A stretch of 36,296 nucleotides of DNA from a virus (taxonomy: Duplodnaviria; Caudoviricetes), in IMG/VR virus record IMGVR_UViG_3300026302_000103, positions 1 to 36,296 of that record. One strand, 5' to 3'. Below the pieces are notes generated by a model. It was not told the DNA's origin. It saw nothing but the letters and a program-made list of their open reading frames with translations, and ran no database searches. Below, one piece after another: positions 3,262 through 32,864 of this stretch (positions are counted from its first letter, which is position 1; each line of letters opens with the position of its first letter). Made by a program: the position numbers and the translations under genes.

Positions 3262-3267
3262 GGTGAA

Positions 3268-4155
3268 TTACTCCTTTGTGGTTCCGAAACGGGCGTCGAT
3301 GTAGCTGGAGGCTTCGACGGTGTAGGGCTTTTTCTGGATCAGCTTCCGGCGGAATACCCGGTTTCCGTCCAGCTTCAGCACAGCCGCATCGCCCATAAAG
3401 GCGAGCAGATGGTTCTTTGCGGTCTCCGCGACCTTCTCGTATTCGCGGGCCTTTTCTGCTGCGTCCTCGGCTACCTTGGCCCAGTGCAGAATCATTTCGT
3501 CGGCCTCGACCTTGGCGCCGTTGGTGCCCGGATAGAGGCGCTTGAACATGGGCAGCGTCGCGGGGTGGTCGAACTCCGGCTCGGGCGGAACGCCGGCGAT
3601 GACGTTCTTGTGCCAAAAGTCGTGCGCCTCCTGGATGATTAGCTCGTCCATTTCACGGTCGCGCTCCATCGGGTAGATGCGCAGGTCGTCGCCGCCGAAA
3701 TAGGCCGCCACGTCGAACGCCGGATAGTCGAGCACGAGCATGTAGTGATGCGGTTGCGGGACGTAATACTCGGCGATGGCATCGGGCTGGCCGTCCTTGC
3801 CCCACAGGTAGGCCATGCGCGGTGAGACGTTCTTGATCTCCAGGCCCTTCGGCTGGCCTACGAAGTCGCGGTCGATGTGGGCGATCAGGAAGTCATGCTT
3901 CGGGTGGCGCAGGGTGCGATTCACCTTGCGCAGCTTCACGCCTTCACGCTCGGCGACCATCGAGGCGATCACCTGCTCCATGACCCGGCCAGCTTTGGTG
4001 CGGCTGTTGTCGGGCGTCGGCTCAATCTCGCCGCGCTTCTGCAGGTACAGCTCCAGGCGCGTCGCGTAGGGGTTGATCCCGAACAGCGTCGCGATGTCGC
4101 TGCCGCCGAGGCCGGTCTGGCGGGCCTTCAGGAATTCTTCGATCGGTGCATTCAT
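3268..4155 (-). CDS. YqaJ-like viral recombinase exonuclease (lambda-exo family)
   Basis: R.TGLGGSD..LFGINPY, G..ME, AHIDR, LEIKN and YYVPQPHHYM motifs. Confidence 0.92.
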   Translation of the reverse strand: MNAPIEEFLKARQTGLGGSDIATLFGINPYATRLELYLQKRGEIEPTPDNSRTKAGRVMEQVIASMVAEREGVKLRKVNRTLRHPKHDFLIAHIDRDFVGQPKGLEIKNVSPRMAYLWGKDGQPDAIAEYYVPQPHHYMLVLDYPAFDVAAYFGGDDLRIYPMERDREMDELIIQEAHDFWHKNVIAGVPPEPEFDHPATLPMFKRLYPGTNGAKVEADEMILHWAKVAEDAAEKAREYEKVAETAKNHLLAFMGDAAVLKLDGNRVFRRKLIQKKPYTVEASSYIDARFGTTKE

Positions 4156-4621: not shown

Positions 4622-4860
4622 GCAGCCCTCGGCAGGGTGTCGAGCGGGCGGGCGATCACGACAAGGCCGTCGAGCGGCATCGACTCGTCACCGTCGAAGA
4701 AAAGGTCGATGGCCTTGCAGATCGCGTCGCAAGACGTGTAGGCCATTACGTTGATGTCCTCGGGCGCCGTGGCCGTCTTGATGCTGACGGCGAACGGGCG
4801 CAGGGCCGGGGGAGCGAAAGGCGCCAGCGCCTCGCGGAAAAGCGGGTGAATGTTGCTCAT
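4618..4860 (-). CDS. Hypothetical 80-aa protein (MSNIHPLFREAL...)
   Basis: ATG at 4860 with GGAGG RBS, overlapping the LPD29 stop; ends in RAA like several neighbours. Confidence 0.65.
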   Translation of the reverse strand: MSNIHPLFREALAPFAPPALRPFAVSIKTATAPEDINVMAYTSCDAICKAIDLFFDGDESMPLDGLVVIARPLDTLPRAA

Positions 4861-5432
4861 GCCAGTGCCTCCGCGTTGAGGGCGCCGATGTCGCTGTAGC
4901 CGTCGTTGCCGAGGTAGATCACGCGGCCGGCGGTCTTCGACTGCTCGACCTTCAGGCGGTCGGAGCGCTTCGCGAGCTGCTGCCAGATCAGGTCGCGCAG
5001 GTCGTAATTGCCGACGACATGGATGTAGCAGCAACGGCCGGCTTTCCAGTCCTCGGCCGTCGGGCGCTGCACTTCCTTGAGGTTGCCGGCATAGCGGCGG
5101 AACACGGCGCCGATCGCGGCCTCGACGAAGGCGTCGGAGTAGTCGCGGTTGCAGAAGATGAAGTCGGCGCCGAAGTTCACGACCTGGCCGTCGAGCATCG
5201 CGTAGGTGTTGCCCTGATAGTCCTGACTGCCGTCGAAGTAGGCGCCTTGGAAGGTCTTCGCGACCGCTTCGACCTGGGCACCGTTCGGGCCGTCGATCCA
5301 GCGCACGTTGATCGAGGCGCCGCCGCTGTAGGTGTCGGAACGGACGGAGAACTTCACGCCGGGGAATGCTTCTTTCAGTGCCTGGCGCACCATCTTTGCG
5401 GTGTCGGCACAAGAGAGATATTTCGCAACCAT
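4857..5432 (-). CDS. LPD29 (large polyvalent protein-associated domain 29) protein
   Basis: TAKMVRQALKEAFPGVKFSVRSDTYSGGASINVRWIDGP matches the LPD29 signature as recalled. GGAGG RBS; first gene after PL. Confidence 0.75.
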   Translation of the reverse strand: MVAKYLSCADTAKMVRQALKEAFPGVKFSVRSDTYSGGASINVRWIDGPNGAQVEAVAKTFQGAYFDGSQDYQGNTYAMLDGQVVNFGADFIFCNRDYSDAFVEAAIGAVFRRYAGNLKEVQRPTAEDWKAGRCCYIHVVGNYDLRDLIWQQLAKRSDRLKVEQSKTAGRVIYLGNDGYSDIGALNAEALA

Positions 5433-7035: not shown

Positions 7036-7464
7036 ATGCGGTCAAAAGAATTGAATGCGGTTGAGCACCCCGAGCTTCCACTAGCCCGGAAGGCCGATCC
7101 CGTCGAGGTTCCGCTTGATCTGGTGGTCAAGCAACACACCCTTTCGGCGGCGATCGCGCTCTGCGTACAAGTGTCCGGCCTCGAAGAAAAAGAGGTCTAT
7201 CTGTCGCTCGAAATCGACGCCGGCCACTGGACGCGGATCATGAAGGGCGACGCGCACTTCCCGGTGAACAAGCTCAACAATCTGATGGACTTGTGCGGCA
7301 ACGAGGCGCCGCTGATGTGGCTGGCGAACTCGCGCGGCTATGGCCTGGTGGTATTGAAGACCGAGGCCGAGCGCCGCGCCGAGATGGCCGAGCGCGCCCT
7401 GCGAGAAGAGCGCGACAAGGTGCGCTTCCTCACCGAGCTGCTGCAAGGAAAGGCGGCGGCATGA
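7036..7464 (+). CDS. CII-like transcriptional regulator
   Basis: Follows cro; HTH-like LEIDAGHWTRIMKG and C-terminal coiled coil; GGAGG RBS before ATG 7036. Confidence 0.6.
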   Translation: MRSKELNAVEHPELPLARKADPVEVPLDLVVKQHTLSAAIALCVQVSGLEEKEVYLSLEIDAGHWTRIMKGDAHFPVNKLNNLMDLCGNEAPLMWLANSRGYGLVVLKTEAERRAEMAERALREERDKVRFLTELLQGKAAA

Positions 7465-8420
7465 TTCTTCATGTCGTCAGCGTATCGGGCGGGAAGGACA
7501 GCACCGCGACGCTCTTGCTCGCCCTTGAAAAAATCGGTCGCGAACGGCTTCGGGCGATCTTCTGCGACACCGGAAACGAGCACTCCGCAGTCTATGAATA
7601 CCTGTCCTACCTCGAACAAGCGCTCGACATCCGAATCGACCGGCTGAAGGCAGACTTCACCGACCAGATCGCCGCAAAGCGACGCTTCATCTCCCGCGAC
7701 CAGCGCGTCGGACGAGACAAGCGGGGAAGAAAGATTCGCTGGAGCAACAAGGCAAAGCGGCGCGCTCTCGAAGTCCTTCACCCTACTGGGAACCCGTTCC
7801 TCGATCTTTGCATCTGGAAGGGTCGATTCCCATCCCGCAAGGCGCAGTTCTGCACGGAAGAGCTGAAGCGGAATATGGCCGTGAGCTACCAGCTTGATTT
7901 GGTCGACGCCGGCTACCAGATCGTGAGCTGGCAGGGAGTTCGTAGAGACGAAAGTCTCAACCGACGGCACGCGAAAAAAATTGAGCGCATCGGGCCGGCT
8001 ATGCGGGCGTTCCGTCCGATCGTTGAATGGACTGCTCTGCAGGTCTTTGACTACTGCGCACAGTGCGGAATTCAGCCGAATCCGCTCTACCTGCAGGGAA
8101 TGGGCCGTGTCGGCTGTATGCCGTGCATCAACGTCGGGAAGGACGAGCTGCGGCAAATCCATGCTCGATTTCCTGAAGCCCTTGATGAAAAGGCTAGGTG
8201 GGAGGCGCTTGTCTCCAAGGCCTCGAAGCGCGGGTTTTCTACTTTCTTCAACAAAGAGCTTCATGCCGCCAATTACGCCGATCGGCGCGTTCACCACGCG
8301 AACCGCGTCGAGGCAGTGATCGAGTGGGCGCACACAACCCGAGGGGGGCGGCAGTTCGATCTGCTCGCCGACCTGGTCGAGCCGACCGCGTGCTCGTCAG
8401 CCTACGGGCTGTGTGAGTAA
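7461..8420 (+). CDS. PAPS reductase family protein (PP-loop, Cys motifs)
   Basis: VVSVSGGKDS, FCDTGNEH, FCTEELK, WQGVRRDES, NPLY..GMGRVGCMPC and C-terminal CSSAYGLCE. Confidence 0.9.
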   Translation: MILHVVSVSGGKDSTATLLLALEKIGRERLRAIFCDTGNEHSAVYEYLSYLEQALDIRIDRLKADFTDQIAAKRRFISRDQRVGRDKRGRKIRWSNKAKRRALEVLHPTGNPFLDLCIWKGRFPSRKAQFCTEELKRNMAVSYQLDLVDAGYQIVSWQGVRRDESLNRRHAKKIERIGPAMRAFRPIVEWTALQVFDYCAQCGIQPNPLYLQGMGRVGCMPCINVGKDELRQIHARFPEALDEKARWEALVSKASKRGFSTFFNKELHAANYADRRVHHANRVEAVIEWAHTTRGGRQFDLLADLVEPTACSSAYGLCE

Positions 8421-19657: not shown

Positions 19658-20166
19658 TGTGCACCGGAACCTCTTTTGCACTCTACGCGATGGCCGCGGC
19701 CGCCGCCGTTGGCGCTTACGCCAGCATCCAGTCGGCGGAACAACAGAAGGACTGGAACGAATACCAAGGCAAGCAGGCCGAGGCCGATGCAAAGGCCGAG
19801 AAGAGCGCCGCCGAGGTGCAGGCAGAGAAGATCAGGAAGATGGCCCGGATCAACGCCGGCGAGGCGACGGCATCCCTTGCCGGCTCGGGCGTCGATGTCG
19901 GCGAGGGCACCGCGCTGAACATCAACAGCGAGATTTACGGCCGAGCCGAAGAGGATGCGGTCATGACGATCTTCGGAGGTGCTGATCGCTCGGCACGAGG
20001 CAACGCCGAGGCGGCCGGGTACAGACTGAAGGGAAGCCAGGCGCAGCAGGCCGGCTATCTGAATGCGGCCTCGACTGTTCTCGGCGCAGCCGGAAGCACG
20101 GCGAAAGGCTGGAAGACGCCCTCGTCGAATGGGACGGTTCCGTCGGCCGGCGGTAGCGGGGGTTAA
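19657..20166 (+). CDS. Small internal virion / ejection protein
   Basis: MC start, hydrophobic N-terminus and LAGSGVDVGEGTAL; T7 gp14-like position. Confidence 0.75.
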   Translation: MCTGTSFALYAMAAAAAVGAYASIQSAEQQKDWNEYQGKQAEADAKAEKSAAEVQAEKIRKMARINAGEATASLAGSGVDVGEGTALNINSEIYGRAEEDAVMTIFGGADRSARGNAEAAGYRLKGSQAQQAGYLNAASTVLGAAGSTAKGWKTPSSNGTVPSAGGSGG

Positions 20167-20169
20167 GCG

Positions 20170-22269
20170 ATGAAGATTCCGATGGGAAATTTCGGCTTCA
20201 AGGGGCCGGACGCAGTGCAGCACACCCACGTCAGCGGCGACGGCATCGACGCAGCCGCCCGCGCTGCGCAGAACCTTGGACAGACCGGCATGCAGGTGGC
20301 CGCCGGCATCATGGCCGACCAGCGTCAGGAGAACGAGGCACTGACCCGCGCCCGCGCCGGTAATGTCCTGCTCGATCGCGAGATTCAGATCAAGACGCTG
20401 AACGCCGACCTCGAACAGAAACTCGCCGACGGCTCACTGCGCCACGATCAGGCGGTCGATGCCTACAACGCTGCGCTGAAGAAGATGGAGACCACGACGG
20501 TCGACGGCATGGACGTGGTGACGGCCGAGAACTTCAACAAGGGGATGAAGCGCGTCGAGTTCTCGGGTCTCTCCGCAATCCAGCAGGCATCGGAGAAGGC
20601 GAAGCGCGTCGAGTTCAAGGGGCAGACCGACGGCGCCCTCGATCGCTTCGGCAAGCTGGCCGGCATGCCCGGTGCAGAGATCGACAAGATCAACACCCAG
20701 GTGGATGCCCTCGATCCCATCGGACAAGTCGCCTACGGCCAGAACTGGGGGAAGGTGAAGCAGGACTTCCGCGACCGCAACTGGACGAATCAGGCGACGC
20801 AGCGCGCCATGCAGGTACGCGACAACCTCGACGGACTGCAGCAGCTCGAACGCGACCTCACCGATGCCGACGGCTTCTATGCCGGGAAACTCGACACCGA
20901 CAAGCGCAACGCCGTACTGCGCACCGTCATCGGCGACCGCATGCGCCTGGAGAACCGGCTGCAGCACGATGCCGACCGACGCGAGGCCCGCGCCGAGAAG
21001 GTGATCGGCGAGATCGACCGCCAGATCGCGAGCGGCGTGCCGGCGACGGCCGACATGTGGACAGCCTGGGGCGACAAAGTGAAGGGCACCTCATTCGAGG
21101 GCGAGATGAAGCAGCGCCTCGATGAAGAGGGCGAGGTGCAGAAGGTGCTGCGCCTGCCGGTCGATCAGCAGCTCGCTTTCGTGCAGCAGCGCGAGGCCAA
21201 GCTGCTCAACGGGGGCGGCACGGTGCGCGATCAGGCGAATCTCTCCCGCATGAAGGGCGCCGTCGAGGCGAACGTGAAGCAGCTCCAAGAGGCGCCGCTG
21301 CTCTTCAACCAATCCCGCACGGGCACGCCGGTGCAGCCGCTCGACATCGCCGCCCTAGCCGACCCCAACGGAGCCGGAAAAGTATCCGGTCAGATGCGCG
21401 ACCGCGTGGCCTCGATCACCGCCATGCAGAAGCAGTACGGCCCGCAGGTACAGATGCGGCCCCTATTGCCGCAAGAGGCCCAGTTCCTGACCCGCGCCCT
21501 CGATCAGGCCAGCCCGCGCCAGCAGGTCGATCTGTTCGGCACCCTGCGCAAGGCATTCGACGACGACAGCGCCTATGCCGCGGCGATGCAGCAGATCGCG
21601 CCGGATTCCCCGGTCAAGGCACTGGCCGGCATCCTTGTGGCGAAGCAGCGCAAGATCACGCTCGAAAGCAATCTGTTCTCTGCCGACACCACGGCCATGA
21701 GCGGCGACATCGCGGCAACCCTGCTCGATGGCGAGGCCTTGCTGAACAAGACCAAGGGACAGAAGGCCGAGGACGGAAAGGCGAAGGGCATCCCATTGCC
21801 CCCCGAGAAGGACTTCCGCGATCAGTTTTCCAGCGCTGCCGGTCACGTCTTCGCCGGCCGTCCGCAGGCCTACGAGGTCGCCATGCAAGCGGTGCGCGCC
21901 TACTACACCGGAAAGGCCGCCCAGGATGGTGACGTATCCGGACAGATCGACGGCGGGCGCATGAAGCACGCGATCACCGCCGTGCTCGGCGAGGTCGTGA
22001 ATTACAACGGCAACGGCGAAGTGCTGGCGCCCTGGGGCATGGACAAGAGCACCTTCAAGGACAAGACGAAGGACGCCTTCCGCACCGAGCTGAAGGCCCG
22101 CGGCATGCCGGACTCGATGCTCGACAGCCTGCCGGCGCTCGGACTGCGGAACAAGGGAGACGGCACCTACTACGTGGTTCAGGGGCGGAACTACCTCTAT
22201 GACCGGCAGGGGCAGCCGGTAATCATCAACCTCAACGGCCAGCCCCAACCGCAGCAGGTGAAGAAATGA
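20170..22269 (+). CDS. Internal virion / ejection protein (699 aa)
   Basis: Long helical Ala/Gln-rich protein in the ejection gene block. Confidence 0.75.
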   Translation: MKIPMGNFGFKGPDAVQHTHVSGDGIDAAARAAQNLGQTGMQVAAGIMADQRQENEALTRARAGNVLLDREIQIKTLNADLEQKLADGSLRHDQAVDAYNAALKKMETTTVDGMDVVTAENFNKGMKRVEFSGLSAIQQASEKAKRVEFKGQTDGALDRFGKLAGMPGAEIDKINTQVDALDPIGQVAYGQNWGKVKQDFRDRNWTNQATQRAMQVRDNLDGLQQLERDLTDADGFYAGKLDTDKRNAVLRTVIGDRMRLENRLQHDADRREARAEKVIGEIDRQIASGVPATADMWTAWGDKVKGTSFEGEMKQRLDEEGEVQKVLRLPVDQQLAFVQQREAKLLNGGGTVRDQANLSRMKGAVEANVKQLQEAPLLFNQSRTGTPVQPLDIAALADPNGAGKVSGQMRDRVASITAMQKQYGPQVQMRPLLPQEAQFLTRALDQASPRQQVDLFGTLRKAFDDDSAYAAAMQQIAPDSPVKALAGILVAKQRKITLESNLFSADTTAMSGDIAATLLDGEALLNKTKGQKAEDGKAKGIPLPPEKDFRDQFSSAAGHVFAGRPQAYEVAMQAVRAYYTGKAAQDGDVSGQIDGGRMKHAITAVLGEVVNYNGNGEVLAPWGMDKSTFKDKTKDAFRTELKARGMPDSMLDSLPALGLRNKGDGTYYVVQGRNYLYDRQGQPVIINLNGQPQPQQVKK

Positions 22270-25200
22270 GCGTCTTTGACCTCGACCAGAAGGGGCAGCA
22301 GGCACTTGCCGAAGACGCCCGACTGAATCCGCTTGATGCCTCGCAGATCGAGCCGACGACCTTCACCGGCACCGGCAAGGGCATCGGCATGGGGATGATG
22401 AAGGGCGGCGCCCGTGTCGGGCAGTTCGTCGGACTCGCCGGTGCAGTCGTGCCGATGGCGATCGACAAGATCACCGAGGGCGACAACTTCAGCGGGAAGA
22501 GCCTCACCGACCGCTATTTCGAGGGTCTGGACGAGACCGTGAATCGTGCGGCCGACTACTGGACTCCGAATCATGCCGAGGTCGGCAAGGCCGGCCAGGT
22601 GCTCGGCGGCCTGTCCGAGATCATCCTGCCGATGCTCGCCGGCGGTGGCAATCCAGCCCTGACCGCGACGATGGTCACGGGATCGCAGACCGCAGGAACC
22701 GGCATCGACCTCGTGAAGCAGGGCGTCGACGGCAAGACAGCCGGTACCGTGGCTGCAATTCAAGGCCTTTCCACCTATGCCGGCTTCAAGATTCCCTTCC
22801 TCGGCCACACGCTGGCGGCCCGCATGGGCAGCGGTGTGGCCGGGAACGTCGTGACCAATGCAGGCGGCGCTGCGGTGCAAAGCAAGGTGCTGAAGGGGGC
22901 GGGCTACGATGAGCAGGCCAAGCAGTTCGACCCGATGAACCTCGAAGCGCGCTCTATCGACGTGCTCACCGGCATGCTCTTCGGCGGTTTCGCGCACTGG
23001 TCGGCCGGGAAGGGGAAGCCGATTGCTCCGTCGGATGCCGACGCCGTGCTGACCGCCAACAACGCGAAGCACTTCCAGCAGGACACCGCCCCCGGCGTAC
23101 CGGCCGACGCCAAGGCAAGCACCGCGCACCAGTCGGCGATTGAGCAGGCGATCGAGCAGCTTGTCCGCGGCGAGCGGGTGAGCGTCGCCGATAGCATCCA
23201 CGATGCCGAATTCGTGCGCCCGGTACCGCCCTCGGCCGAGACGCCGATCGCCACCGCCGTGCGCGACGCCTTCGGGCCTGACCTTCCGCGTTACCGGCCG
23301 AGTGCGCCGGCCAATGCACCGCGCGGCGTGCGCAACAACAACCCTGGCAACATCGAGCGCAGCGCGCGGGTTTGGGATGGCGAGGTCGCCGGCAACGATC
23401 CGCGCTTCGCTACCTTCGACACTCCCGAGGCCGGCATCCGTGCCCTGGCAAAGAACCTGATCGCCTACAACGACAAGCACGGGCTGAACACCGTCGAGGG
23501 CATCATCAACCGATGGGCGCCACCTGGCGAGAACAAGACGAGCAGCTATGCGCAGGCCGTCGCCAAGGAACTCGGCGTCAAGCCGGGCGACGTGCTCAAC
23601 GTGCGCGACCCCGACACCCTGACCCGCCTCACGTCGGCGATCATCCGGCACGAGAACGGAGCGCAGCCCTACCCGGCCGAGACCTTGCGCGCCGGCGTCG
23701 AATTGGCGATTTCCGGCGGCTCGTCGAAAAAGTCGCCAGCCGACTTTCTGGCCGCAATGCCCCGCGCGAAGGCGCTCTCGGAACTCGACCGCCAGATCGA
23801 AACCCGCCTCGCCGATAAGATCGCCAAGGATTACCCGGCAGCCGTGACCGAATACAACGCGCTGCCGGAATCCCAAGGCGGCAAGGTGCTCAACGTCGAC
23901 ACGGCGCGCGAGCTGTCGCCAGACTACGCCACCAGCAAGGAATCCCGCGCCCTTCTATCGCCGGCCGTGCATGAGCCGTCGAGCTTCTTCATCAAGCAGC
24001 TCTACGCCGACCGCCTGGCCGAGATGCCGCCCGACGGAACGGTGATGTTCACGTCCGGCGGCACCGGCGCCGGCAAGTCCTCGGCGATCGAGCAAGTGCC
24101 CGTCGCGGCCCAGGCGCTGAAGGATGCCTATCTCGTGTACGACACGAACATGAACGGCCTCAAGTCGGCGCAGCAGAAGATCGAGCAGGCACTTGCGGCC
24201 GGCGCGAAGGTCGACATCTGGCACGTGCAGCGCGATCCGGTCGATGCCCTGGTCAATGGTGCCCTGCCGCGGGCCAAGCGTATCGGCCGCACCGCTCCGC
24301 TCGAAGCCCACGAAGCGACCTACGTCGGCGCCGCCGAGACCATCGGAAAGCTGGCGGAAATCTACAAGGACGATCCGCGCGTAACCGTCCGAGTGCTCGA
24401 CAACACGCGAGGCCGGGGAAATGCAGCAGAGACCGGAATTGAGTTTGTCAAGGGGTTCGACTACAATAATCTTCGTGAGAGGCTGATTTCAGCGCTCCAG
24501 AAGGAGTATCAAGATGGCCGCATCAACGATGCAATCTACCGCGGGACGCTCGGCAGTGCCGCAGATGCCGGACGGCAGGACGGTGGAACAGGCAGCCGAC
24601 GACTACACGAGGATGGAGTATCGTCGGGGCTACCCCTTCGCCAGCGAGGAAGAAATTCAGATGCTGCTGGACGCCGAGAAGAAGGCGGGCTACCCGGCGG
24701 ACGATCTGCAACAGGCGAAGGAAATCCTCGGCAAGTCGTAAGTGCCGACCGCTTCCCTGTCCAAGGGAAGACAGCAACCGCCGTCACCGAGCGCGGCGCC
24801 ACAGTTCAAACCCAATTTGTCGCCGTCGAGGCATCAAGCCTCGTAACCTCGCACGACAACGGGCTGCGCCAAAACCCCAACTTCCCCCCCGAGCTGCAAC
24901 CGCGTGACCGCGGCCGAGCGGCTTCCGAGGCGCAGATCGCCAAGATCGAGAACGGGATCAACCCCGAGCTGCTGGCCGAGTCTCCAAAGGCTTCCGACGG
25001 TGCCCCGATCATTGGCACCGATAGCGTCGTCGAATCCGGTAACGCTCGCACCATCGCGCTGCGCCGCGCCTACGAGGGCGGCAAGGCTGATCCATACCGC
25101 CAGTGGCTGATCGACAATGCCGAGCGCTTCGGCCTCGATCCGGCCAAGGTCGCCGAGATGAAGCAACCGGTGCTTGCCCGTGTCGGCCTGGGGAAATACG

Positions 25201-26144
25201 ACCGCGCAGAATTTGCCCGCCAGGCGAACGAGTCGGCCGTTGCGCAAATGTCCGTCACCGAGCAGGCACGCGCTGACGCTGCACGCATGCCAGACCTGAT
25301 GGGCCTCGTCACCAACGAGGACGGCAGCATCAACCCGACGCAATCCGCCCCCTTTATCCGCGCTTTCCTCGCCCAGGCTGTCAGCCCGTCGGAACATGGC
25401 GCCATGATGACAGGCGACGGTGCGCTGTCGCAGCAGGGGCTGCAGCGCATCCGCAACGCCGTCTTCGCCAAGGCCTACGGCGAACCCGAGATCGTCGCCA
25501 TGATGGCCGAGAGCACCGACGCCAACGTGAAGAACATCCTCGCCGGAATGCTGCGCGCGGCGCCCGCCGTGGCCCGCCTGAAGGAGTTGATCGAGGCCGG
25601 TGCCCGGTACCCGATGGACATCTCCGGCGACCTCGCGCAAGCCGTGCGCCAGTTCTCGCAACTTCGCCGCGACGGCATGACGGTGCAGCAGATGCTCGCG
25701 CAGGCGGGGCTGTTCGATGGCGGCCCGTCGCCCGAGCTGCGCAATCTGCTGATCGGTCTGGAAGAGAACGCCAAGGCACCGAAGCGCGTCGCCGAGCTGA
25801 TCGGCCGCGTCGTCGATTCCGTCGACCGCCTGGGAGACCCCCGGCAAGGCTCAATGTTCGGCGATATGGCGAACCCGACCACCCCAGAGATAATCACCCG
25901 CGTGATCGAGTCGGTGCGCGATGATTTCGAGATCAAGGCCGCCGCCGATCTGTTCAAGACCCCCGAGGTCGAGGCCGCCCGTCAGGTCATGGAAGCAAAC
26001 CCCGATATGCGCGTCGTTCTCGACGATGGCACCGAGGTCTCCGTGCGCGAGGCAATGGCCCGCCTGGGCGACGACGCCCGCCAAGCGGACACCGACGTGA
26101 AGGCCTTCGAGGCCGCCGTTACCTGCTACTTGAGGAACCTGTGA
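22266..26144 (+). CDS. Polyvalent ejection protein: RNNNPGNI virion domain + zeta-toxin-like P-loop kinase + DdrB-like ParB domain
   Basis: Hydrophobic Gly/Ala N-terminus; RGVRNNNPGNI..FATF..PEAGIRAL (about aa 353); Walker A GGTGAGKS (aa 598); VTSHD..NPNFPPELQPRDR..DGAPII...VVESGNARTIAL (about aa 860-935). Confidence 0.85.
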   Translation: MSVFDLDQKGQQALAEDARLNPLDASQIEPTTFTGTGKGIGMGMMKGGARVGQFVGLAGAVVPMAIDKITEGDNFSGKSLTDRYFEGLDETVNRAADYWTPNHAEVGKAGQVLGGLSEIILPMLAGGGNPALTATMVTGSQTAGTGIDLVKQGVDGKTAGTVAAIQGLSTYAGFKIPFLGHTLAARMGSGVAGNVVTNAGGAAVQSKVLKGAGYDEQAKQFDPMNLEARSIDVLTGMLFGGFAHWSAGKGKPIAPSDADAVLTANNAKHFQQDTAPGVPADAKASTAHQSAIEQAIEQLVRGERVSVADSIHDAEFVRPVPPSAETPIATAVRDAFGPDLPRYRPSAPANAPRGVRNNNPGNIERSARVWDGEVAGNDPRFATFDTPEAGIRALAKNLIAYNDKHGLNTVEGIINRWAPPGENKTSSYAQAVAKELGVKPGDVLNVRDPDTLTRLTSAIIRHENGAQPYPAETLRAGVELAISGGSSKKSPADFLAAMPRAKALSELDRQIETRLADKIAKDYPAAVTEYNALPESQGGKVLNVDTARELSPDYATSKESRALLSPAVHEPSSFFIKQLYADRLAEMPPDGTVMFTSGGTGAGKSSAIEQVPVAAQALKDAYLVYDTNMNGLKSAQQKIEQALAAGAKVDIWHVQRDPVDALVNGALPRAKRIGRTAPLEAHEATYVGAAETIGKLAEIYKDDPRVTVRVLDNTRGRGNAAETGIEFVKGFDYNNLRERLISALQKEYQDGRINDAIYRGTLGSAADAGRQDGGTGSRRLHEDGVSSGLPLRQRGRNSDAAGRREEGGLPGGRSATGEGNPRQVVSADRFPVQGKTATAVTERGATVQTQFVAVEASSLVTSHDNGLRQNPNFPPELQPRDRGRAASEAQIAKIENGINPELLAESPKASDGAPIIGTDSVVESGNARTIALRRAYEGGKADPYRQWLIDNAERFGLDPAKVAEMKQPVLARVGLGKYDRAEFARQANESAVAQMSVTEQARADAARMPDLMGLVTNEDGSINPTQSAPFIRAFLAQAVSPSEHGAMMTGDGALSQQGLQRIRNAVFAKAYGEPEIVAMMAESTDANVKNILAGMLRAAPAVARLKELIEAGARYPMDISGDLAQAVRQFSQLRRDGMTVQQMLAQAGLFDGGPSPELRNLLIGLEENAKAPKRVAELIGRVVDSVDRLGDPRQGSMFGDMANPTTPEIITRVIESVRDDFEIKAAADLFKTPEVEAARQVMEANPDMRVVLDDGTEVSVREAMARLGDDARQADTDVKAFEAAVTCYLRNL
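24439..24506 (+). promoter_or_regulatory. Intragenic sigma70-like promoter and RBS for the nested gene
   Basis: TTGAGT (24439-24444), 17 bp, TACAAT (24462-24467); AAGGAG at 24501-24506, 7 nt before ATG 24514. Confidence 0.65.
24514..24741 (+). CDS. Nested +1-frame 75-aa acidic helical protein, candidate antitoxin
   Basis: Own promoter and SD; GC-ending codons in this frame; the host frame here is a low-complexity G/R/S linker. Confidence 0.7.
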   Translation: MAASTMQSTAGRSAVPQMPDGRTVEQAADDYTRMEYRRGYPFASEEEIQMLLDAEKKAGYPADDLQQAKEILGKS

Positions 26145-28681
26145 TGAAACCCCAGTGCATTGATGCAGTGAATCAGGCCGTCGGCCGCGAGATGAACGAG
26201 GCCGAGCTGAAGGGAGTCGAAGAGCGCATCGTCCGACACCTGCGACAAAACGCAGCGCGTGACCCGCAGGGAACGCTCGCCATGACCGCCGAGCAGCGCT
26301 TCGTCGAGGCGGCCAAGTCGGCGGCCGAAGAGTTCCAGATCGAGCAGGCGAAGAAGGCGCAGCGCGTCGCCCTGCAGGTGCTGGCGAATGCCAAGATCGA
26401 ACAGCACCTTTCCCAGTTCGCCGGCGACAAGCTCGACGGCATGGCCCGTGTGGTCGCCTTCCACGCCGACGGCAAGGGGAACTTCCTCTCTGTCGAAAGC
26501 CAGGCCAAGGCCGTCGAGCGCGACGCCCTGCGCCAGATGATCGGCACGATGGAAGCCAGCAACCCGAAATTCTTCGGACTGTTCGAGAATCGCGACGGGG
26601 TGCGCGCCCTGGTGAAGGAACTCTTCGGCGAGGATTCCGGGGTGAAGGAAGCCAAGGACGGGGCCGCCCAGTTCAAGGCCGTGGCCGAGGCGCTGCGCCA
26701 GCGCTTCAACCGCGGCGGCGGCGAGATCGGCCAGCTCGAAGACTGGGGCATGCCGCACCATCATTCGCAGCTCAACGTCGCCAAGGCCGGGCGCGAGCAG
26801 TGGATCGCCGACATCATGCCGCAGCTCGACCGTAAGCGTTACACCGGCCCGGACGGTTCGCCCATGACCGATCAGGAGCTGAACGTCTTCCTGACGAACG
26901 CCTGGGAAACAATCGCCACCGGCGGCGTGAACAAGATCGAGCCAGGTCGGCCGAACGGCAACGGTATGCGCGCCAACCGCGGCAACGAAGGGCGGCAAAT
27001 CCATTTCAAGGACGCCGACAGCTATCTCGCCTATCAGGAGAAATACGGCGAGCGCACCGCCTACGAGGTGATGATCGGCCATATCGCCGGCGTCGCGAAA
27101 GACATCGCCCTGGTCGAAACCCTCGGGCCGAATCCTGACCACGCCTTCCGATTGTTCCGCGACATCGCCGTGAAGGAAGCTACGCTTGCCGATCCGGCCA
27201 AGGCAGGCAAGGTGCAGAAGCAGGCCGTCGGGCTGGAAAACCTCTACAACATGACCGCCGGCAAGACCCTGCCGGTCGCCTCCGAATGGCTGGCGAAGAG
27301 CTTCGACACCCTGCGCTCATGGCTGACCGCTTCCCGCCTAGGATCGGCGGTGATTTCGTCCCTGTCTGACGAGGCGACCCTGTACCTCACCGCCCACGTC
27401 AACAACCTGCCAGAGATGCGGCTATTCGCGAACGAGCTGGCCGCGCTCAACCCGGCGAACCAGATGGAAAAGCGCATGGCGCTGCGCGCAGGCCTCGCCA
27501 TGAACACGATGATTTCCTCGCTGAACCGCTTCGGGCAAGACGGCCTCGGCAGCTCGTTCTCGTCGAAGCTGGCCTCGACGGTGCTGCGCGCTTCCGGCCT
27601 CAATGCCCTGACCGAAGCCCGCCGGCGCGCATTTGGTGTGACGATGATGTCGAGCCTCGGCCAGATCACCCGCGACTTCGACGGTATCGGCCGCCTCGAC
27701 CCGGCAGACCATCGCATCCTGTTGTCGAAAGGGATCACCGAGACAGACTTTGCCGTCTGGCGCAAGGCGCAGCTCGAAGACTGGGGCGGCGGCAATCACA
27801 CCATGCTGACGCCGGAGTCGATCTATCGCATCCCCGACGAAGCCCTCGCCGGACTGGCCGACGACATGTTCCCCAACATGCCGGTCGACGCCCGCGCGCT
27901 GAAGGAGCGCGCCGCTACCCGGCTGCTCGGCGTGGTGCTCGAAGAAACCGACGTGGCCGTGATCGAGCCGGGCGTGAAAGAGCGCACGATGATGATGGCG
28001 AACCTTCAGCGCGGCACGTGGAAGGGCGAACTCACGCGATCCTTCTTCCTGTTCAAGTCCTTCCCCCTGGCGATGCTGACCCGGCACTGGATGCGAGGCA
28101 TGAGCATGGAGACAACCGGCGGCAAGGCGGCCTACATCGCTTCCCTCGTCGCCTCGACAACGCTCATGGGGGCAATCTCCCTGCAGATCAATGAGGTGCT
28201 TTCCGGGCGCGACCCGCGCAACCTCAACCCGGCCGAGAAGGGCGGCGTGCGCAACTGGATACAGGCCATGCTGAAGGGCGGATCGCTCGGCATCTATGGC
28301 GATTTCCTATTCTCCGAAGCGACGCAGCACGGGCAGAGTCCGGTCGCCTCATTCATGGGGCCGGTGATCGGCATGGGCGAGTCGATGTTCAACCTCACCC
28401 AGGGCAACGTCGTGCAGGCGCTGCAGGGCAAGGACACGCACGCCGGAGCCGAGCTGGTGAAGTTCGTCAAGGGCAACTTGCCGGGGGCGAATCTCTGGTA
28501 TGCCAAGGCCGCGCTCGATCACATGATCTTTCATCGGATGCAGGAATATTTCTCGCCGGGCTATCTTTCGACGATGCGCTCTCGCGCTTATCGCGAGTTC
28601 GGGCAACAATTCTGGTGGGAGCCGGGCGACGTGACACCGGATCGGGCGCCGAACATGGCCGCCGCAGTGGGAGGACGATGA
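26141..28681 (+). CDS. Large internal virion / ejection protein (846 aa)
   Basis: MKPQCIDAV start, FFLFKSFP, LKGGSLGIYGDFL and PGANLWYAKAALDH; last gene of the ejection block. Confidence 0.8.
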   Translation: MMKPQCIDAVNQAVGREMNEAELKGVEERIVRHLRQNAARDPQGTLAMTAEQRFVEAAKSAAEEFQIEQAKKAQRVALQVLANAKIEQHLSQFAGDKLDGMARVVAFHADGKGNFLSVESQAKAVERDALRQMIGTMEASNPKFFGLFENRDGVRALVKELFGEDSGVKEAKDGAAQFKAVAEALRQRFNRGGGEIGQLEDWGMPHHHSQLNVAKAGREQWIADIMPQLDRKRYTGPDGSPMTDQELNVFLTNAWETIATGGVNKIEPGRPNGNGMRANRGNEGRQIHFKDADSYLAYQEKYGERTAYEVMIGHIAGVAKDIALVETLGPNPDHAFRLFRDIAVKEATLADPAKAGKVQKQAVGLENLYNMTAGKTLPVASEWLAKSFDTLRSWLTASRLGSAVISSLSDEATLYLTAHVNNLPEMRLFANELAALNPANQMEKRMALRAGLAMNTMISSLNRFGQDGLGSSFSSKLASTVLRASGLNALTEARRRAFGVTMMSSLGQITRDFDGIGRLDPADHRILLSKGITETDFAVWRKAQLEDWGGGNHTMLTPESIYRIPDEALAGLADDMFPNMPVDARALKERAATRLLGVVLEETDVAVIEPGVKERTMMMANLQRGTWKGELTRSFFLFKSFPLAMLTRHWMRGMSMETTGGKAAYIASLVASTTLMGAISLQINEVLSGRDPRNLNPAEKGGVRNWIQAMLKGGSLGIYGDFLFSEATQHGQSPVASFMGPVIGMGESMFNLTQGNVVQALQGKDTHAGAELVKFVKGNLPGANLWYAKAALDHMIFHRMQEYFSPGYLSTMRSRAYREFGQQFWWEPGDVTPDRAPNMAAAVGGR

Positions 28682-29061
28682 TGCGACAAGACCAGTACGA
28701 GAAGCTGCAGGCGCTGTCCGAGCGCCTGACCGACGTATTCCTCGACGAGGCCGAGCCGGAGAAGTGGCCGGGGCACAACATCGAGCCGGGCGCGATGGAT
28801 CAGAAGACGCGCGGCGATCGCTACTGGTGCAAGAAGAACGCCGTCGCCACGCTGACCCTAGTCGGCCGAGTGGCCGGCCTCACCGACCTGATCCAGAAGC
28901 AAAGCAACGCCGGCAACGGCGCGGCCGGCGTGACCGAAGAGGAAGCGACCCTCGACGCCGAAATCAATGCCGCCGAGAAGGAAGCCGCAAAGTTGCTCGA
29001 TCAACTCCAGCGCCGCAGCAAAAAGGGCGAGTTCGACAAGCGCGTACATGGCAAGTCGTGA
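28678..29061 (+). CDS. Putative terminase small subunit
   Basis: 127-aa helical protein directly upstream of and overlapping terL; GGAGG RBS. Called from synteny. Confidence 0.6.
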   Translation: MMRQDQYEKLQALSERLTDVFLDEAEPEKWPGHNIEPGAMDQKTRGDRYWCKKNAVATLTLVGRVAGLTDLIQKQSNAGNGAAGVTEEEATLDAEINAAEKEAAKLLDQLQRRSKKGEFDKRVHGKS

Positions 29062-30679
29062 CGTCAACTTCCTCACCTTCTTCCTGATTTGGGCGAAGCT
29101 GCAGGGCTGGAAAGTCCCGCTGCTGCACGTCCGTATCTGCCAGTGGCTCGACACCTGCGACGCGCGCGTGCGCGTTCTGATGGTCTTCCGGGGGGCGGCG
29201 AAATCGACGATCTACGCCGTCTGGAAGGCATACCGGCTCTACAAGAACCGGACGAACCGCTCGCTGATCTACGCCGCTGACGACAAGCTGGCCGGGAAGC
29301 TGACCCGCGACACCTTGGCGGTGCTGCGACGGCATCCGCTGTGCGCCGGCATGCTGCCGCGCAACCCTGGCGCCCTGTCGTTTTGGGTGAATGGCGCCAC
29401 CGATGCCCGCAACCCGAGCATGGAAGCCGTCGGCGTGAATTCCAACGCGACCGGCTCACGGGCTGACGATGCCGACTTTGACGACATCGAGGTGCCGAAG
29501 AACATCAAGACCCCCGAGGCCCGGCTGAACCTTCGCCAGAAGATCGAGGAATCGACGCACATCCTCGTACCTGGCTGGCAGAAAACTTTCGTCGGCACGC
29601 CCCACACGCATGATTCGATCTACACCGAACAGATCGAGGGCGGGGCGGCCGTGCTGAAGATTCCCCTCTTCGAGCACGTTCGCCGCTACACCGACACCAG
29701 CCAGCGCCGCCGGTACCGCTTCGACTTCCCGATCGCCGACGACGGCCTCTATGTGATCGCCGGCATCTACAAGTTTTCCCGCATGCTGGTCGAGGGACGC
29801 GACTATCGCGTCGAGGGTAACGAGGTCGTCTTCGACACCCCGCCGGGCGACGTGCTCGACATCTGTGCCGGCTGCGCCTGGCCGGAGCGATTCACCCGCG
29901 AGGAAATCGCCCTCAAGCGGCAGGAGACCCGCACGCTCAACGCCTGGGATTCGCAGTACCAGCTCGAAGCGAAGCCCATCTCGGAAGTGCGCCTCGATCC
30001 CGCGCGTATCGTTCCCTACGACTGCGAGCCGGTTGTCCGTGTCGCGAATGGCGAGGTTGGCATGTGGCTCGGCTCGACCCGCATCGTCGGCGCGACGGCC
30101 TACTGGGACTGCTCGCTCGGGAAGATCAAGTCGGACGCCTCGGCCCTCTCCCTGCTGCTGACCGACGCCCGCGGGCAACTGTACTGGCACGCTGCCCAGG
30201 GTCTGACCGGGGAGCTTGCCGAGTTCGACGACAAAGACCGGATCGTCGGCGGCCAGGTCATGCAGGTGCGCGAGCTGGTGCTGCGCCTCCAGATTCCCCG
30301 CGTCGTGGTCGAGACCAACGGGCCGGGCGGCTTTGTGCCGAACATCCTGCGCCAGGCGCTCAAGGGCACCGGTTGCGGGGTAGGTGAAGAGTTCTCCGTC
30401 ACCAACAAGCAAAAGCGCATTCTCGACGCCTTCGAGGCGCCCCTGTCCTCCCGCTTCCTGTGGGCGCATGTATCCGTCCTCGAAGGCCCGGTATGGGATC
30501 AGATGAAGGACTTCAACCCCGAGCTGCGCGACCAGCCAGACGACTACCTCGACAGCGGTGCCGGAGCCATTGCGCAGACGCCGATTCGGATCGGGAAGAT
30601 AGTCGGGAAACCGACCGACCACTCACGCGAAGATTGGCGACCAAATGCGGGCGTGCATGAGGTCGTAGTCGAGTATTGA
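29048..30679 (+). CDS. terL: Terminase large subunit
   Basis: LMVFRGAAKST (Walker A variant), GSRADDADFDDIE (Walker B), VGTPH, YWDCS, VVETNG and DDYLDS nuclease motifs. Confidence 0.92.
   Translation: MASRDVNFLTFFLIWAKLQGWKVPLLHVRICQWLDTCDARVRVLMVFRGAAKSTIYAVWKAYRLYKNRTNRSLIYAADDKLAGKLTRDTLAVLRRHPLCAGMLPRNPGALSFWVNGATDARNPSMEAVGVNSNATGSRADDADFDDIEVPKNIKTPEARLNLRQKIEESTHILVPGWQKTFVGTPHTHDSIYTEQIEGGAAVLKIPLFEHVRRYTDTSQRRRYRFDFPIADDGLYVIAGIYKFSRMLVEGRDYRVEGNEVVFDTPPGDVLDICAGCAWPERFTREEIALKRQETRTLNAWDSQYQLEAKPISEVRLDPARIVPYDCEPVVRVANGEVGMWLGSTRIVGATAYWDCSLGKIKSDASALSLLLTDARGQLYWHAAQGLTGELAEFDDKDRIVGGQVMQVRELVLRLQIPRVVVETNGPGGFVPNILRQALKGTGCGVGEEFSVTNKQKRILDAFEAPLSSRFLWAHVSVLEGPVWDQMKDFNPELRDQPDDYLDSGAGAIAQTPIRIGKIVGKPTDHSREDWRPNAGVHEVVVEY
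30602..30634 (+). promoter_or_regulatory. Late promoter 3, inside the terL 3' end (tail fibre/lysis operon)
   Basis: GTCGGGAAACCGAC, 13 bp, GAAGAT. Confidence 0.65.
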
Positions 30680-30710: not shown

Positions 30711-32864
30711 ATGTCCGTTCAAAATCAAGTCCCGTTCAACAGTTACAACGCCAACGGCGCGACGACTGTCTTTCCCTACGAGTTCCTGCTGCTCGACCCC
30801 GGCGACCTGATCGTCACCGTCGCCGGCAACCCTGTGACCTACGGGGCCGACTTCAACATCACCGGCCTGGGCAACTTGGGCGGCGGCGATGTGGTTTTCG
30901 GTACCGCCCCTGCCAGCGGCAAGGTGCTTATCAAGCGGGTGCTGACCATTCAGCGCGTGACCGACTATCAGGACAACGGCGATCTGCTGGCCGACACGCT
31001 GAACAACGATTTCGACCGCCTCTGGCAGGCGCTGCAGCAGCTCCAGCAGAACGACTTGCGAGCGCTGAAACTCCCCTACGACACGAGCATCGACCAGACA
31101 CTTGTCGAGGATGCTGCCGCCCGAGCCGGTCTTCTGGTCGGATTCGATGCCGCGGGCAACATGACGCTGAAGAAAGCGGCCGACCTATCCCTGCAAACCG
31201 TCTCGGCCTTCATCGCAACCCTGCTCGATGATGTCGACGCGGCAGCCGCCCGCACGACCTTGGGCATTCCGCCCCCGAACACCAACGGCGCAAACCTCGA
31301 CGCGAACAGCGTGCCGCTTTCACGGCTTGCCCGAGGCCCGGCCGGCAAGGTGCTGCTCGGCATGGGTGCCGGCGCTGACCTCCAGTTCGGAGACGCCCCC
31401 TTCAGCATCTCGCTGATCCCGGCCGCGTCGCTCGATCGCTCGAAGCTGGCGCCGTCTGCTGTCACCAAGGTGAAGGGATTCCCGACCCGGCAGCAGGCCG
31501 ATTTCCCATATCCGCACATGATGATTCGGATGATGGACGACACCCTGCTCGGGTGGGGGCGCACCTACGCGATGGCGCTCGGCATCAACGAAACGGCCGA
31601 CACGACGGCGATACCGCGCAAGCCGGTCTTCAACGTCGCCATTCCCGCCGGCGTGACGGTGAAGGATTTCGTCATCGCCAACGCATCAGCCTGGGTGCTC
31701 ATGAGCAACGGGTGGGTGTATTCGGCCGGTCAAAACCAGTCCGGCCAGCTTGGGCACGGCGACACGACGGCCCGATCGGTCTTCACCCGGATCGAGTATT
31801 TCGTGACCAACAGCATCACGGTCGACAAGATTTTCGCGGCAGGCTCGCGCAACGCGATCAACTATGCCGGCGCCTACTTCCTCAACGCGGCCGGTAATGT
31901 TTGGGCCTGCGGCTACAACGCGGCCGGCCAGCTCGGCGTCGGTGACACCACGAACCGAACGACGCCGACGGCGATCAGCGGCGCGATCAGTGGCGTGGCC
32001 GACATCACCATCGGGGCATCGAATCAGGCGAGCGTCTTCTTGCGCAAGACTGACGGCTCCCTGTACGCCTGCGGCTATAACGGGCAAGGTTCTCTCGGAC
32101 TTGGCGACACCACGAACCGCAGCGCCTTCACCCTCGTGACCGGGATCACCGGCGTCGCCGAGGTATGGAGCACGAGCTGCGATAACCCCGGCATTGCCGC
32201 GCACACCGTCGCGCGCCTGACCAACGGCGACGTGTATGCCTGCGGGTTCAATGCTTACGGACAGCTCGGCGTCGGCGACACGACCAACCGGACGGGCTTC
32301 ACGAAGATCGCCTCGCTCGCGAATATCGTCTCTATCGGTTGCTCTGGCGGCTACTACGGCTATTCCTGGGCGATTTCCAACACCGGACGCCTCTACACCT
32401 GGGGCTACAACGGATCGGGCGTCGTCGGAGACGGTTCTGTCGTCAATCGCACCAGCCCCTTCAACGTCGTCGGCTGGTCGGGAAACACGGTGCAAGACCC
32501 GCCATTCCTCGGGAAGATCAGCAAGGTCGTTGCCCATCTGAACGGCACCAGCTATCAGCATCTTGTCGTTCTCGATACGGACGGAAATCTCTGGTTCTCC
32601 GGTCAAGACTATGAGTTCTACTGCGCCGACACCGCGACCCAGTGCAACCGCTTCACGCCGTTCCGCCCCTTCATCCTCGAAAGCTCGACCGAGAAGATCG
32701 TCGATCTGTTCTGCCACGGAACGGACGCGACCTATCGGCATTTCTTCCTGAGCAACGACAACAAGCTCTACGCGATGGGAGACAACGGCTACAGCGTCTG
32801 CAATGCCGGCTTCAATGCGGCGATCCCCGCCATCGTGAAGAGCATGCAGCGCGTGCCGATCTGA
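30711..32864 (+). CDS. Tail fibre / receptor-binding protein with RCC1-like repeats
   Basis: T7-fibre-like N-terminus (ANGATTVFPYEF...DYQDNGDLLADTLNNDFDRL); repeats of V(Y/W)ACGxNxxGQLGxGDTTNR. Confidence 0.88.
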   Translation: MSVQNQVPFNSYNANGATTVFPYEFLLLDPGDLIVTVAGNPVTYGADFNITGLGNLGGGDVVFGTAPASGKVLIKRVLTIQRVTDYQDNGDLLADTLNNDFDRLWQALQQLQQNDLRALKLPYDTSIDQTLVEDAAARAGLLVGFDAAGNMTLKKAADLSLQTVSAFIATLLDDVDAAAARTTLGIPPPNTNGANLDANSVPLSRLARGPAGKVLLGMGAGADLQFGDAPFSISLIPAASLDRSKLAPSAVTKVKGFPTRQQADFPYPHMMIRMMDDTLLGWGRTYAMALGINETADTTAIPRKPVFNVAIPAGVTVKDFVIANASAWVLMSNGWVYSAGQNQSGQLGHGDTTARSVFTRIEYFVTNSITVDKIFAAGSRNAINYAGAYFLNAAGNVWACGYNAAGQLGVGDTTNRTTPTAISGAISGVADITIGASNQASVFLRKTDGSLYACGYNGQGSLGLGDTTNRSAFTLVTGITGVAEVWSTSCDNPGIAAHTVARLTNGDVYACGFNAYGQLGVGDTTNRTGFTKIASLANIVSIGCSGGYYGYSWAISNTGRLYTWGYNGSGVVGDGSVVNRTSPFNVVGWSGNTVQDPPFLGKISKVVAHLNGTSYQHLVVLDTDGNLWFSGQDYEFYCADTATQCNRFTPFRPFILESSTEKIVDLFCHGTDATYRHFFLSNDNKLYAMGDNGYSVCNAGFNAAIPAIVKSMQRVPI

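Follow-up and report, generated by a model that had tools for sequence, protein, structure and literature searches.

A conserved +1-frame gene nested in a likely phage ejection-protein gene probably encodes the antitoxin of the adjacent zeta_1-type kinase

The epsilon_1 gene of Neisseria gonorrhoeae lies upstream of the zeta_1 gene. In the available part of the structural report on this pair (PDB 6EPG/6EPH/6EPI; PMC5923241), zeta_1 has a rewired zeta fold with its catalytic aspartate before the P-loop, and its ATP-site region is covered by the antitoxin. Zeta-toxin-like kinases are also listed among the domains of polyvalent proteins, which are large multidomain late-gene products that can carry DdrB-like ParB and lysozyme domains (Iyer et al. 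2017, PMC5512222); weakening of the wall for injection is proposed there, and the words "overlap" and "promoter" do not occur in the available main text. MuF polymorphic toxins combine a toxin domain in a virion protein with a small downstream putative immunity ORF, and delivery and lysogen protection have been proposed for them (Jamet et al. 2017, PMC5576092) in an article whose main text, as available, contains neither "zeta" nor "promoter". According to the accessible portions of two preprints, an internal promoter and start within the Rpn toxin gene give rise to its antitoxin (Zhong et al., bioRxiv 10.1101/2023.05.02.539157), and Slr0489S of Synechocystis is an out-of-frame internal product that binds the host-frame protein Slr0489L and neutralises its growth inhibition (bioRxiv 10.64898/2025.12.20.695498).

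Here we analysed a provirus record of 36,296 nucleotides (IMG/VR record IMGVR_UViG_3300026302_000103; hereafter, the window), in which a 1292-codon gene holds a 75-codon gene in its +1 frame, behind a kinase domain. As in epsilon_1/zeta_1, the kinase has the rewired fold (TM 0.79) and the equivalents of D56, K115, R175, and R181, and the small protein is predicted to bind at the kinase ATP site. We conclude that this conserved gene, carried in a likely ejection-protein gene and preceded by a predicted sigma-70-type promoter, probably encodes the antitoxin of the adjacent zeta_1-type kinase.

The 1292-codon gene and its kinase domain

The window comes from a short-tailed phage of temperate type, which has genes for portal, capsid, nozzle, and internal virion proteins, a repressor, and an integrase. 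The 1292-codon gene (Table 1) is located at the phiV10 gp19 position within the internal-virion block behind the nozzle gene, and it is orthologous to the epsilon15-like genes located there. The N-terminal 300 residues of its product are about 30% identical to the 600-aa proteins of such phages, and the product of the adjacent gene is about 50% identical to a phiV10/epsilon15-type virion protein. As a multidomain late-gene product with a DdrB-like ParB domain and variable effector domains, the 1292-aa protein is a polyvalent protein. A domain search revealed no MuF match in it, and the toxin domain is internal, not C-terminal. Internal proteins of epsilon15 are present in virions and ejected, by a general statement in the available part of PMC8954989, and the 1292-aa protein is likened to them by gene order and its N-terminal region; we regard it as a likely ejection protein that is probably packed in the virus particle.

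Elsewhere in the window, a tail fibre with RCC1 repeats is encoded at 30711-32864, a stand-alone LPD29 polyvalent-protein-associated domain in the early region at 4857-5432 (minus strand), and a PAPS-reductase-family gene among the early genes at 7293-8420. Within 28615-30679, a probable terminase small-subunit gene (approximately 28681-29061) overlaps the listed start of the large-subunit gene, whose true start is likely beyond 28967.

Table 1. Features of the 1292-codon gene and of the gene nested within it (positions in the window)
Feature	Position	Strand	Evidence or remarks
Polyvalent, internal-virion-type protein, 1292 aa (1292 codons)	22266..26144	+	phiV10 gp19 / epsilon15 gp16 orthologue by position and N-terminal likeness
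N-terminal region, aa 1-317, common to kinase-less orthologues	22266..23216	+	phrog_1145; 28-87% identity to orthologues
Lysozyme/transglycosylase-like domain, aa 345-488	23298..23729	+	phrog_873 E 5.5e-63; phrog_7182 E 5.2e-22
ng_zeta1-type kinase domain, aa 490-765	23733..24560	+	D545, R548, K604, R669, R675 = zeta_1 D56, K59, K115, R175, R181
-35-like hexamer TTGAGT	24439-24444	+	Family T/T/G/A peak, 17-nt spacing; synonymous T 39/56 vs 12.5 expected
-10-like hexamer TACAAT, host-frame Tyr-Asn	24462-24467	+	AAT at 38/38 Tyr-Asn sites vs 11.8 expected
Shine-Dalgarno-like AAGGAG, 7 nt 5' of ATG 24514	24501-24506	+	Start with SD in 49/73 relatives vs 3.3 expected
Gene nested in the +1 frame, product of 75 aa with three predicted helices; predicted antitoxin ("GYP" family)	24514..24741	+	
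G/R/S-rich linker in the host frame, shadow of the nested gene	24561..24741	+	Host pN/pS 1.83 vs 0.48 (+1 frame), small numbers; host GC3 0.38
DdrB-like ParB domain, aa 843-973	24792..25184	+	PF18763 E 2.5e-35

For comparison, 168 loci were fetched; the viral scan took the best 80 of 283 hits and the metagenome scan the best 80 of 214, and these relatives are not independent of one another. With the window included, 166 of the 169 entries cover the end of the kinase domain, giving 96 representatives at less than 95% identity. Four representatives whose contigs end early were dropped; in 73 of the others the host frame runs on past the kinase (hereafter, nested) and in 19 it stops within 26 codons (free). 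All counts out of 73, 19, and 92 given below rest on these best 80 of 283 viral and best 80 of 214 metagenome hits.

The only solved sequence relatives of the kinase domain were two zeta_1 chains from N. gonorrhoeae (E 1e-7; 1e-15 with a profile). Its model (pLDDT 95.8) matched 6EPH with TM 0.79 and E 1e-13, whereas TM values for streptococcal zeta and PezT were 0.38-0.47, and its topology is rewired, with the catalytic D545 N-terminal to the P-loop lysine K604. The domain had been described as a zeta-type kinase; the zeta fold and intact active site agree with this, but the type is the rewired one of ng_zeta1 and not that of PezT or the streptococcal toxins. The five catalytic positions (D545, R548, K604, R669, and R675) are kept in all 73 nested representatives, and the equivalents of D56, K115, R175, and R181 are each kept in 73/73 nested and 19/19 free representatives. 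Of the two UNAM-recognising residues of zeta_1, K59 has arginine as its equivalent in 91 of 92 representatives, and N75 aligns to S or A (S in the window), so that the substrate is not fixed by this comparison; by analogy with zeta_1, a lytic toxin that phosphorylates UDP-sugars at the 4'-OH, the kinase may phosphorylate UDP-sugar cell-wall precursors. The Pfam family Zeta_toxin (PF06414) did not match the whole protein of the window at E 0.01 and matched in 39 of the 39 relatives scanned. The terminal motif at the kinase end is a structural part of the fold and is also seen in zeta_1.

The nested gene, its signals, and its inheritance

All elements of the original prediction, namely TTGAGT-N17-TACAAT, AAGGAG, a 7-nt spacer, ATG 24514, and a 75-codon +1 ORF ending at 24741, were present base for base. 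The reported local AT-richness was likewise found (GC 0.55 at 24375-24524 versus about 0.61-0.69 around it), as were the GC-ending codons of the +1 frame, whose GC1/2/3 values over codons 15-75 are 0.67/0.38/0.84. The rest of the host gene has values of 0.67/0.48/0.84, and the host frame over the same nested codons has 0.82/0.67/0.38. Within the overlap, the codon-position pattern is thus displaced by precisely one base, and since both codon bias and selection track the +1 frame, the host linker is the passenger. Two descriptions needed correction in part. The host frame is indeed a G/R/S linker (49% G+R+S), except that the first 15 or so nested codons overlie the last two helices of the kinase, and the small protein is helical as proposed, with three predicted helices, but its acidity is only mild (13 D/E versus 9 K/R).

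Selection on the nested frame, which had been suspected from the linker-like host frame, was borne out in the window clade, where two disjoint pairs gave pN/pS values, based on small numbers, of 0.48 for the +1 frame and 1.83 for the host frame. Over 41 aligned codons of this clade, the fewest changes by +1 codon position were 17/11/32 (P 0.002), meaning that the host wobble position is the least variable.

Among the nested representatives of the best-80-of-283 and best-80-of-214 sample, all 73 have a +1 frame that continues without a stop for at least 34 codons beyond the anchor, against a null taken from elsewhere in the same genes with a mean of 26.8/73 and a maximum of 45 in 100,000 draws; frequent +1-frame stops in homologues retaining the kinase, which would have spoken against the nested gene, were therefore absent over these 34 codons. 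The +2 frame is open over this length in 21/73. The open +1 frame persisted at 70% (62/62) and 60% (39/39) dereplication, and it ends between 34 and 75 codons in 69/73 nested representatives (18.9 in the null). In the free set it is open in 17 of 19, as an ordinary gene overlapping the 3' end of the kinase gene. A profile of 17 free genes, restricted to codons beyond the kinase end, matched the +1 frame of 52 of the 73 nested loci at P <0.01 and none of the 73 in each of the five other frames. Of the two free loci in which the frame is not open, L120 has a like sequence in the other frame, and no small gene was visible behind the kinase of L156.

The regulatory signals are conserved as well. 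Where the -10 site encodes Tyr-Asn, the second codon is AAT in 38/38 cases (31%, or 11.8, expected), and in 31/31 and 17/17 after stricter dereplication. A TTG(A/C) peak stands 17 nt upstream of the -10 site, with T at the synonymous position in 39/56 (12.5 expected). At the site, 60/73 nested (2.6 expected) and 14/19 free representatives (1.6 expected) scored 8 or more of 12 for the two promoter boxes. A +1 start codon with SD occurs at the site in 49/73 nested representatives, compared with 3.3 expected and a maximum of 12 under a positional null, and 24/73 miss this strict test; the positional null was used instead of a +2-frame control (0/73), which is weak because it depends on the host amino acids. 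By itself, the promoter match of the window is at chance level (one match in 20000-30000 versus 1.0 expected, and two in the whole window versus about 4.7), and it is conservation across relatives that raises the promoter above chance, not the single-genome match. Leader RNA folding is unremarkable (z 0.44), and the Shine-Dalgarno sequence falls within a short predicted hairpin (window 24493-24506). Contigs from five sequencing runs, which represent relatives about 80-92% alike and may derive from DNA, had even, low depth over the kinase, the nested gene, and other late genes. The nested gene is almost certainly real, and the most likely arrangement is that its predicted host sigma-70 promoter lies inside the last codons of the kinase.

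That the +1 ORF, SD, and promoter travel with the kinase domain agrees both with these signals and with linkage counts. A linkage sample chosen on the neighbouring 846-aa gene yielded upstream DNA for 77 of 80 loci and 57 distinct orthologues of the 1292-codon gene. The kinase is present in four of the 57, each with the +1 gene behind it, and the +1 gene matched none of the 53 kinase-less orthologues, many of which are close kin of each other. In a single contig from one relative, 63 other letters stand between 23702 and 24774 in place of 23703-24773, a net in-frame loss of 1008 nt that removes the kinase and the small gene together. Kinase and small gene thus form a linked two-gene unit that is inherited jointly, as in type II systems. 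In the closest kinase-less orthologue (L173:2307-5024, N-terminus 87% identical), an SLT domain and a further domain without a name occupy the same slot and are followed by a G/S-rich linker; the slot in orthologues of this type is variable and may hide other nested genes.

The carriers of the kinase are varied. Domains found in the 39 of 72 nested or free host proteins that were scanned include ParB, LPD22, LPD38, ART-PolyVal, InPase, NUDIX, and RadC, and the arrangement of a kinase with a nested gene is common to dozens of unrelated phage proteins. Loci L028, L033, L053, L054, L057, and L073 contain a free kinase (gene near 2200-3320) and an overlapping small gene, usually just before the terminase genes, and to judge from their sequences such pairs are probably an unannotated phage toxin-antitoxin-like pair. 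Among the free loci with neighbours scanned, 5/11 have the pair directly upstream of a terminase small-subunit gene. Because the free pairs precede terminase genes without a virion carrier, virion delivery is not essential to the module. Searches of plasmids and cultured phages returned only distant kinases, in 14 and 1 records, respectively.

An origin of the small gene by new overprinting on a linker does not fit the existence of the same arrangement as free gene pairs, or the evolution of the linker as the shadow of the small gene. The earlier proposal, that a toxin-antitoxin cassette was absorbed into an ejection protein, stands in its toxin-antitoxin part, which is well supported in silico by comparative and modelling evidence. 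Its direction of transfer is not fixed, since a quick tree shows free forms scattered among nested ones (6 changes, of which at least 2 are forced) and does not root their order.

Small-protein families and predicted binding

The 75-aa protein of the window has no detectable kinship with the majority family of small proteins (P 0.06; profile-profile E 0.098), and its sequence places it in a second, unrelated family, here called GYP; its function is therefore argued, as far as the family is concerned, from position, signals, and a single complex model. The window clade comprises five loci (support 100). A profile search extended it to a wider family with an E-Y-R-x-G-Y-P core, of which 48 short matches were inspected and 40 aligned, and a GYP profile of 11 members hits the +1 frame of the window at 1e-22. 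For protein P0152, a +1-frame encoding is possible from its own start codon exactly up to the stop of the kinase protein P0061. The longest contig recorded for each of the two is 14,861 bases; we infer that they are a free pair of GYP type. Long matches in the representative search were rejected as spurious repeats over residues ~3-46 only, both of the two checked being WD40. GYP-type domains also occur in longer proteins of 100-340 aa (P0126-P0267), sometimes twice. In one locus (L120:3260-3450), a small gene of the majority type lies in the +2 frame behind the kinase stop, and the carrier there also has a SAM-lyase-like domain.

A search for the DNA context of free-looking GYP proteins yielded one locus, which was already among those known, and none was found in cultured phages. 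Against PDB sequences, the GYP profile had no match at E 10 and the majority profile had only two unrelated weak matches. The monomer model of the 75-aa protein consists of three helices (pLDDT 63); with this low-confidence model, Foldseek returned no match at E 0.001, and the Atlas gave nothing usable. Neither small-protein family is named in Pfam, PHROG, NCBIfam, or PADLOC. The supposed likeness to the epsilon and PezA antitoxins was not recovered, as no solved epsilon or PezA was matched in sequence searches or in fold searches with the low-confidence model.

Complex prediction, which had been suggested as a check, placed the 75-aa protein at the ATP site of the kinase with an ipSAE of 0.85 (runs of 0.85, 0.86, and 0.82), versus 0.00 for the best of three controls. 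In calibration, 116 of 157 solved complexes attained this ipSAE mark, as did 2 of 215 mismatched pairs; for the alignments used, these figures apply only approximately. The runs agree in at least 74% of contacts, with a partner pLDDT of at least 79. The predicted interface consists of residues 605-619, just past the Walker A lysine in the P-loop helix, and of the lid, 668-674. Its best-placed contacts are those of R669 and R672 with E35, Y36, G39, L51, and P61, most of which are conserved in the family. The existence of a kinase relative with a solved antitoxin complex could bias where the model places a partner; the 75-aa partner itself resembles no solved protein. The model supports binding over the kinase ATP site, and, taken with the sequence comparisons, it makes the 75-aa product probably the antitoxin of the kinase domain.

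Proposed role, alternatives, and comparison with known systems

Where the toxin sits mid-protein, an antidote gene cannot follow the stop codon, and the host frame would instead read through it as a tolerant linker. The sigma-70-type promoter would free the antidote from late-operon control and leave its synthesis to the host polymerase, so that a lysogen or a newly infected cell would already hold antitoxin when the toxic virion protein is mass-produced or is delivered by a kin particle. Protection would be needed most plainly by a cell producing the protein in many copies, and a lysogen would also be immune to the protein of kin particles. Unfolding at ejection would strip the antitoxin off, and the kinase would then be active in the new host until the incoming DNA is transcribed. 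Whether the kinase does reach the cytoplasm of a new host from the virion is evenly poised: the C-terminal part of T7 gp16, as an analogue, reaches the cytoplasm on ejection according to the available part of PMC8954989, and the muramidase-like domain of the 1292-aa protein implies a periplasmic part, which counts against such access.

A toxin-antitoxin pair acting only in the producing cell would deliver nothing; its kinase could weaken the wall late in infection, as an aid to lysis or its timing, or serve in addiction or abortive infection. The position of free pairs upstream of terminase small-subunit genes (5/11 free loci) and the optional presence of the module in the 1292-aa protein (4/57 orthologues) suit this explanation. 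We nevertheless consider it unlikely, as 73 of 92 representatives keep the host frame open past the kinase, many in very long carriers with ParB, LPD22, LPD38, ART-PolyVal, or InPase, and a fusion kept open in so many carriers suggests that the carrier matters. The small protein might also be a true partner of the kinase without inhibiting it, such as a chaperone, a packaging adaptor, or an activator, given that binding is modelled and that two unrelated small-protein families occupy the same slot. This seems decidedly improbable, because the predicted interface covers the neighbours of the Walker A lysine and of the catalytic arginine, the very site covered by the antitoxin of zeta_1, and because a separate host-type promoter fits protection made in advance better than co-assembly.

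Explanations without a separate gene are weaker still. The +1 frame opens about 10 codons upstream of the ATG, within the kinase end, and could in principle be read by ribosomal frameshifting as an alternative C-terminal tail of the kinase; such a shift would, however, cut off conserved terminal helices, and it accounts neither for the start with SD in 49/73 representatives (3.3 expected) and the conserved promoter codons nor for L120, where the small gene is in the other frame behind the kinase stop, making this highly improbable. Chance can hardly be upheld as the source of the whole pattern, with promoter, SD, and ATG as by-products of the kinase-end protein motif and the open +1 frame as a result of high GC. 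The motif is truly structural and occurs in zeta_1, and the single promoter match is at chance level, but synonymous codons, stop-free runs, shifted GC3, +1-frame conservation, and free-gene homology all exceed their nulls.

An antitoxin gene nested behind its toxin would explain how a cytotoxic enzyme can sit in the middle of a structural protein, where an ordinary downstream immunity gene cannot serve it, and two unannotated small-protein families can be named as candidate inhibitors of zeta_1-type kinases. Because the antidote could be silenced with the host protein left nearly intact, the standing proposal that particles of temperate phages deliver toxins becomes directly testable. A more general and tentative reading, which we consider rather doubtful, is that a widespread class of virion proteins injects a cell-wall-precursor kinase and that the antidote can be expressed only through a host-type promoter lying within the phage gene for that protein. 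If this were true, cells that admit the phage DNA would be rescued, lysogens of the same type would be protected in advance, and cells would be poisoned on destroying the entering DNA; kin specificity would depend on which of the unrelated antidote families had been swapped into the hidden slot, and antidotes to further toxin domains of giant virion proteins could be concealed likewise. The result is also a warning that "disordered linkers" and Tyr-Asn motifs behind the effector domains of polyvalent proteins could be genes and promoters missed by annotation.

The locus differs from each of the described systems in some respect. Unlike zeta_1, the kinase has no OB-fold tail, is a domain inside a phage virion-type protein, and has S in place of N75; its small partner has no sequence or fold match to epsilon_1, and the gene for it, which has a promoter of its own, is nested in the toxin gene behind the kinase domain. 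MuF toxins, in the available text, are C-terminal with an immunity ORF after the stop codon, whereas the present toxin is an internal domain with the small gene nested out of frame, and no MuF domain is present. RpnS, as described in the accessible portion of the preprint, is an in-frame fragment of its toxin, a bacterial defence nuclease; the nested gene is in another frame, encodes an unrelated protein, and is carried by a phage structural gene. Slr0489L is a small cyanobacterial membrane protein made with Slr0489S from one mRNA, and by the same kind of partial account it is neither a phage virion protein nor a kinase. The literature covered, which lies mostly outside subscription papers and supplements, contained no account of an antitoxin gene that is nested in a phage virion gene behind a zeta kinase and transcribed from a promoter of its own. 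In the portions of that literature available, the arrangement was not found as a whole, and its parts are known separately: zeta-like kinases in polyvalent proteins, virion toxins with downstream ORFs, intragenic in-frame antitoxins, and an out-of-frame neutralising partner.
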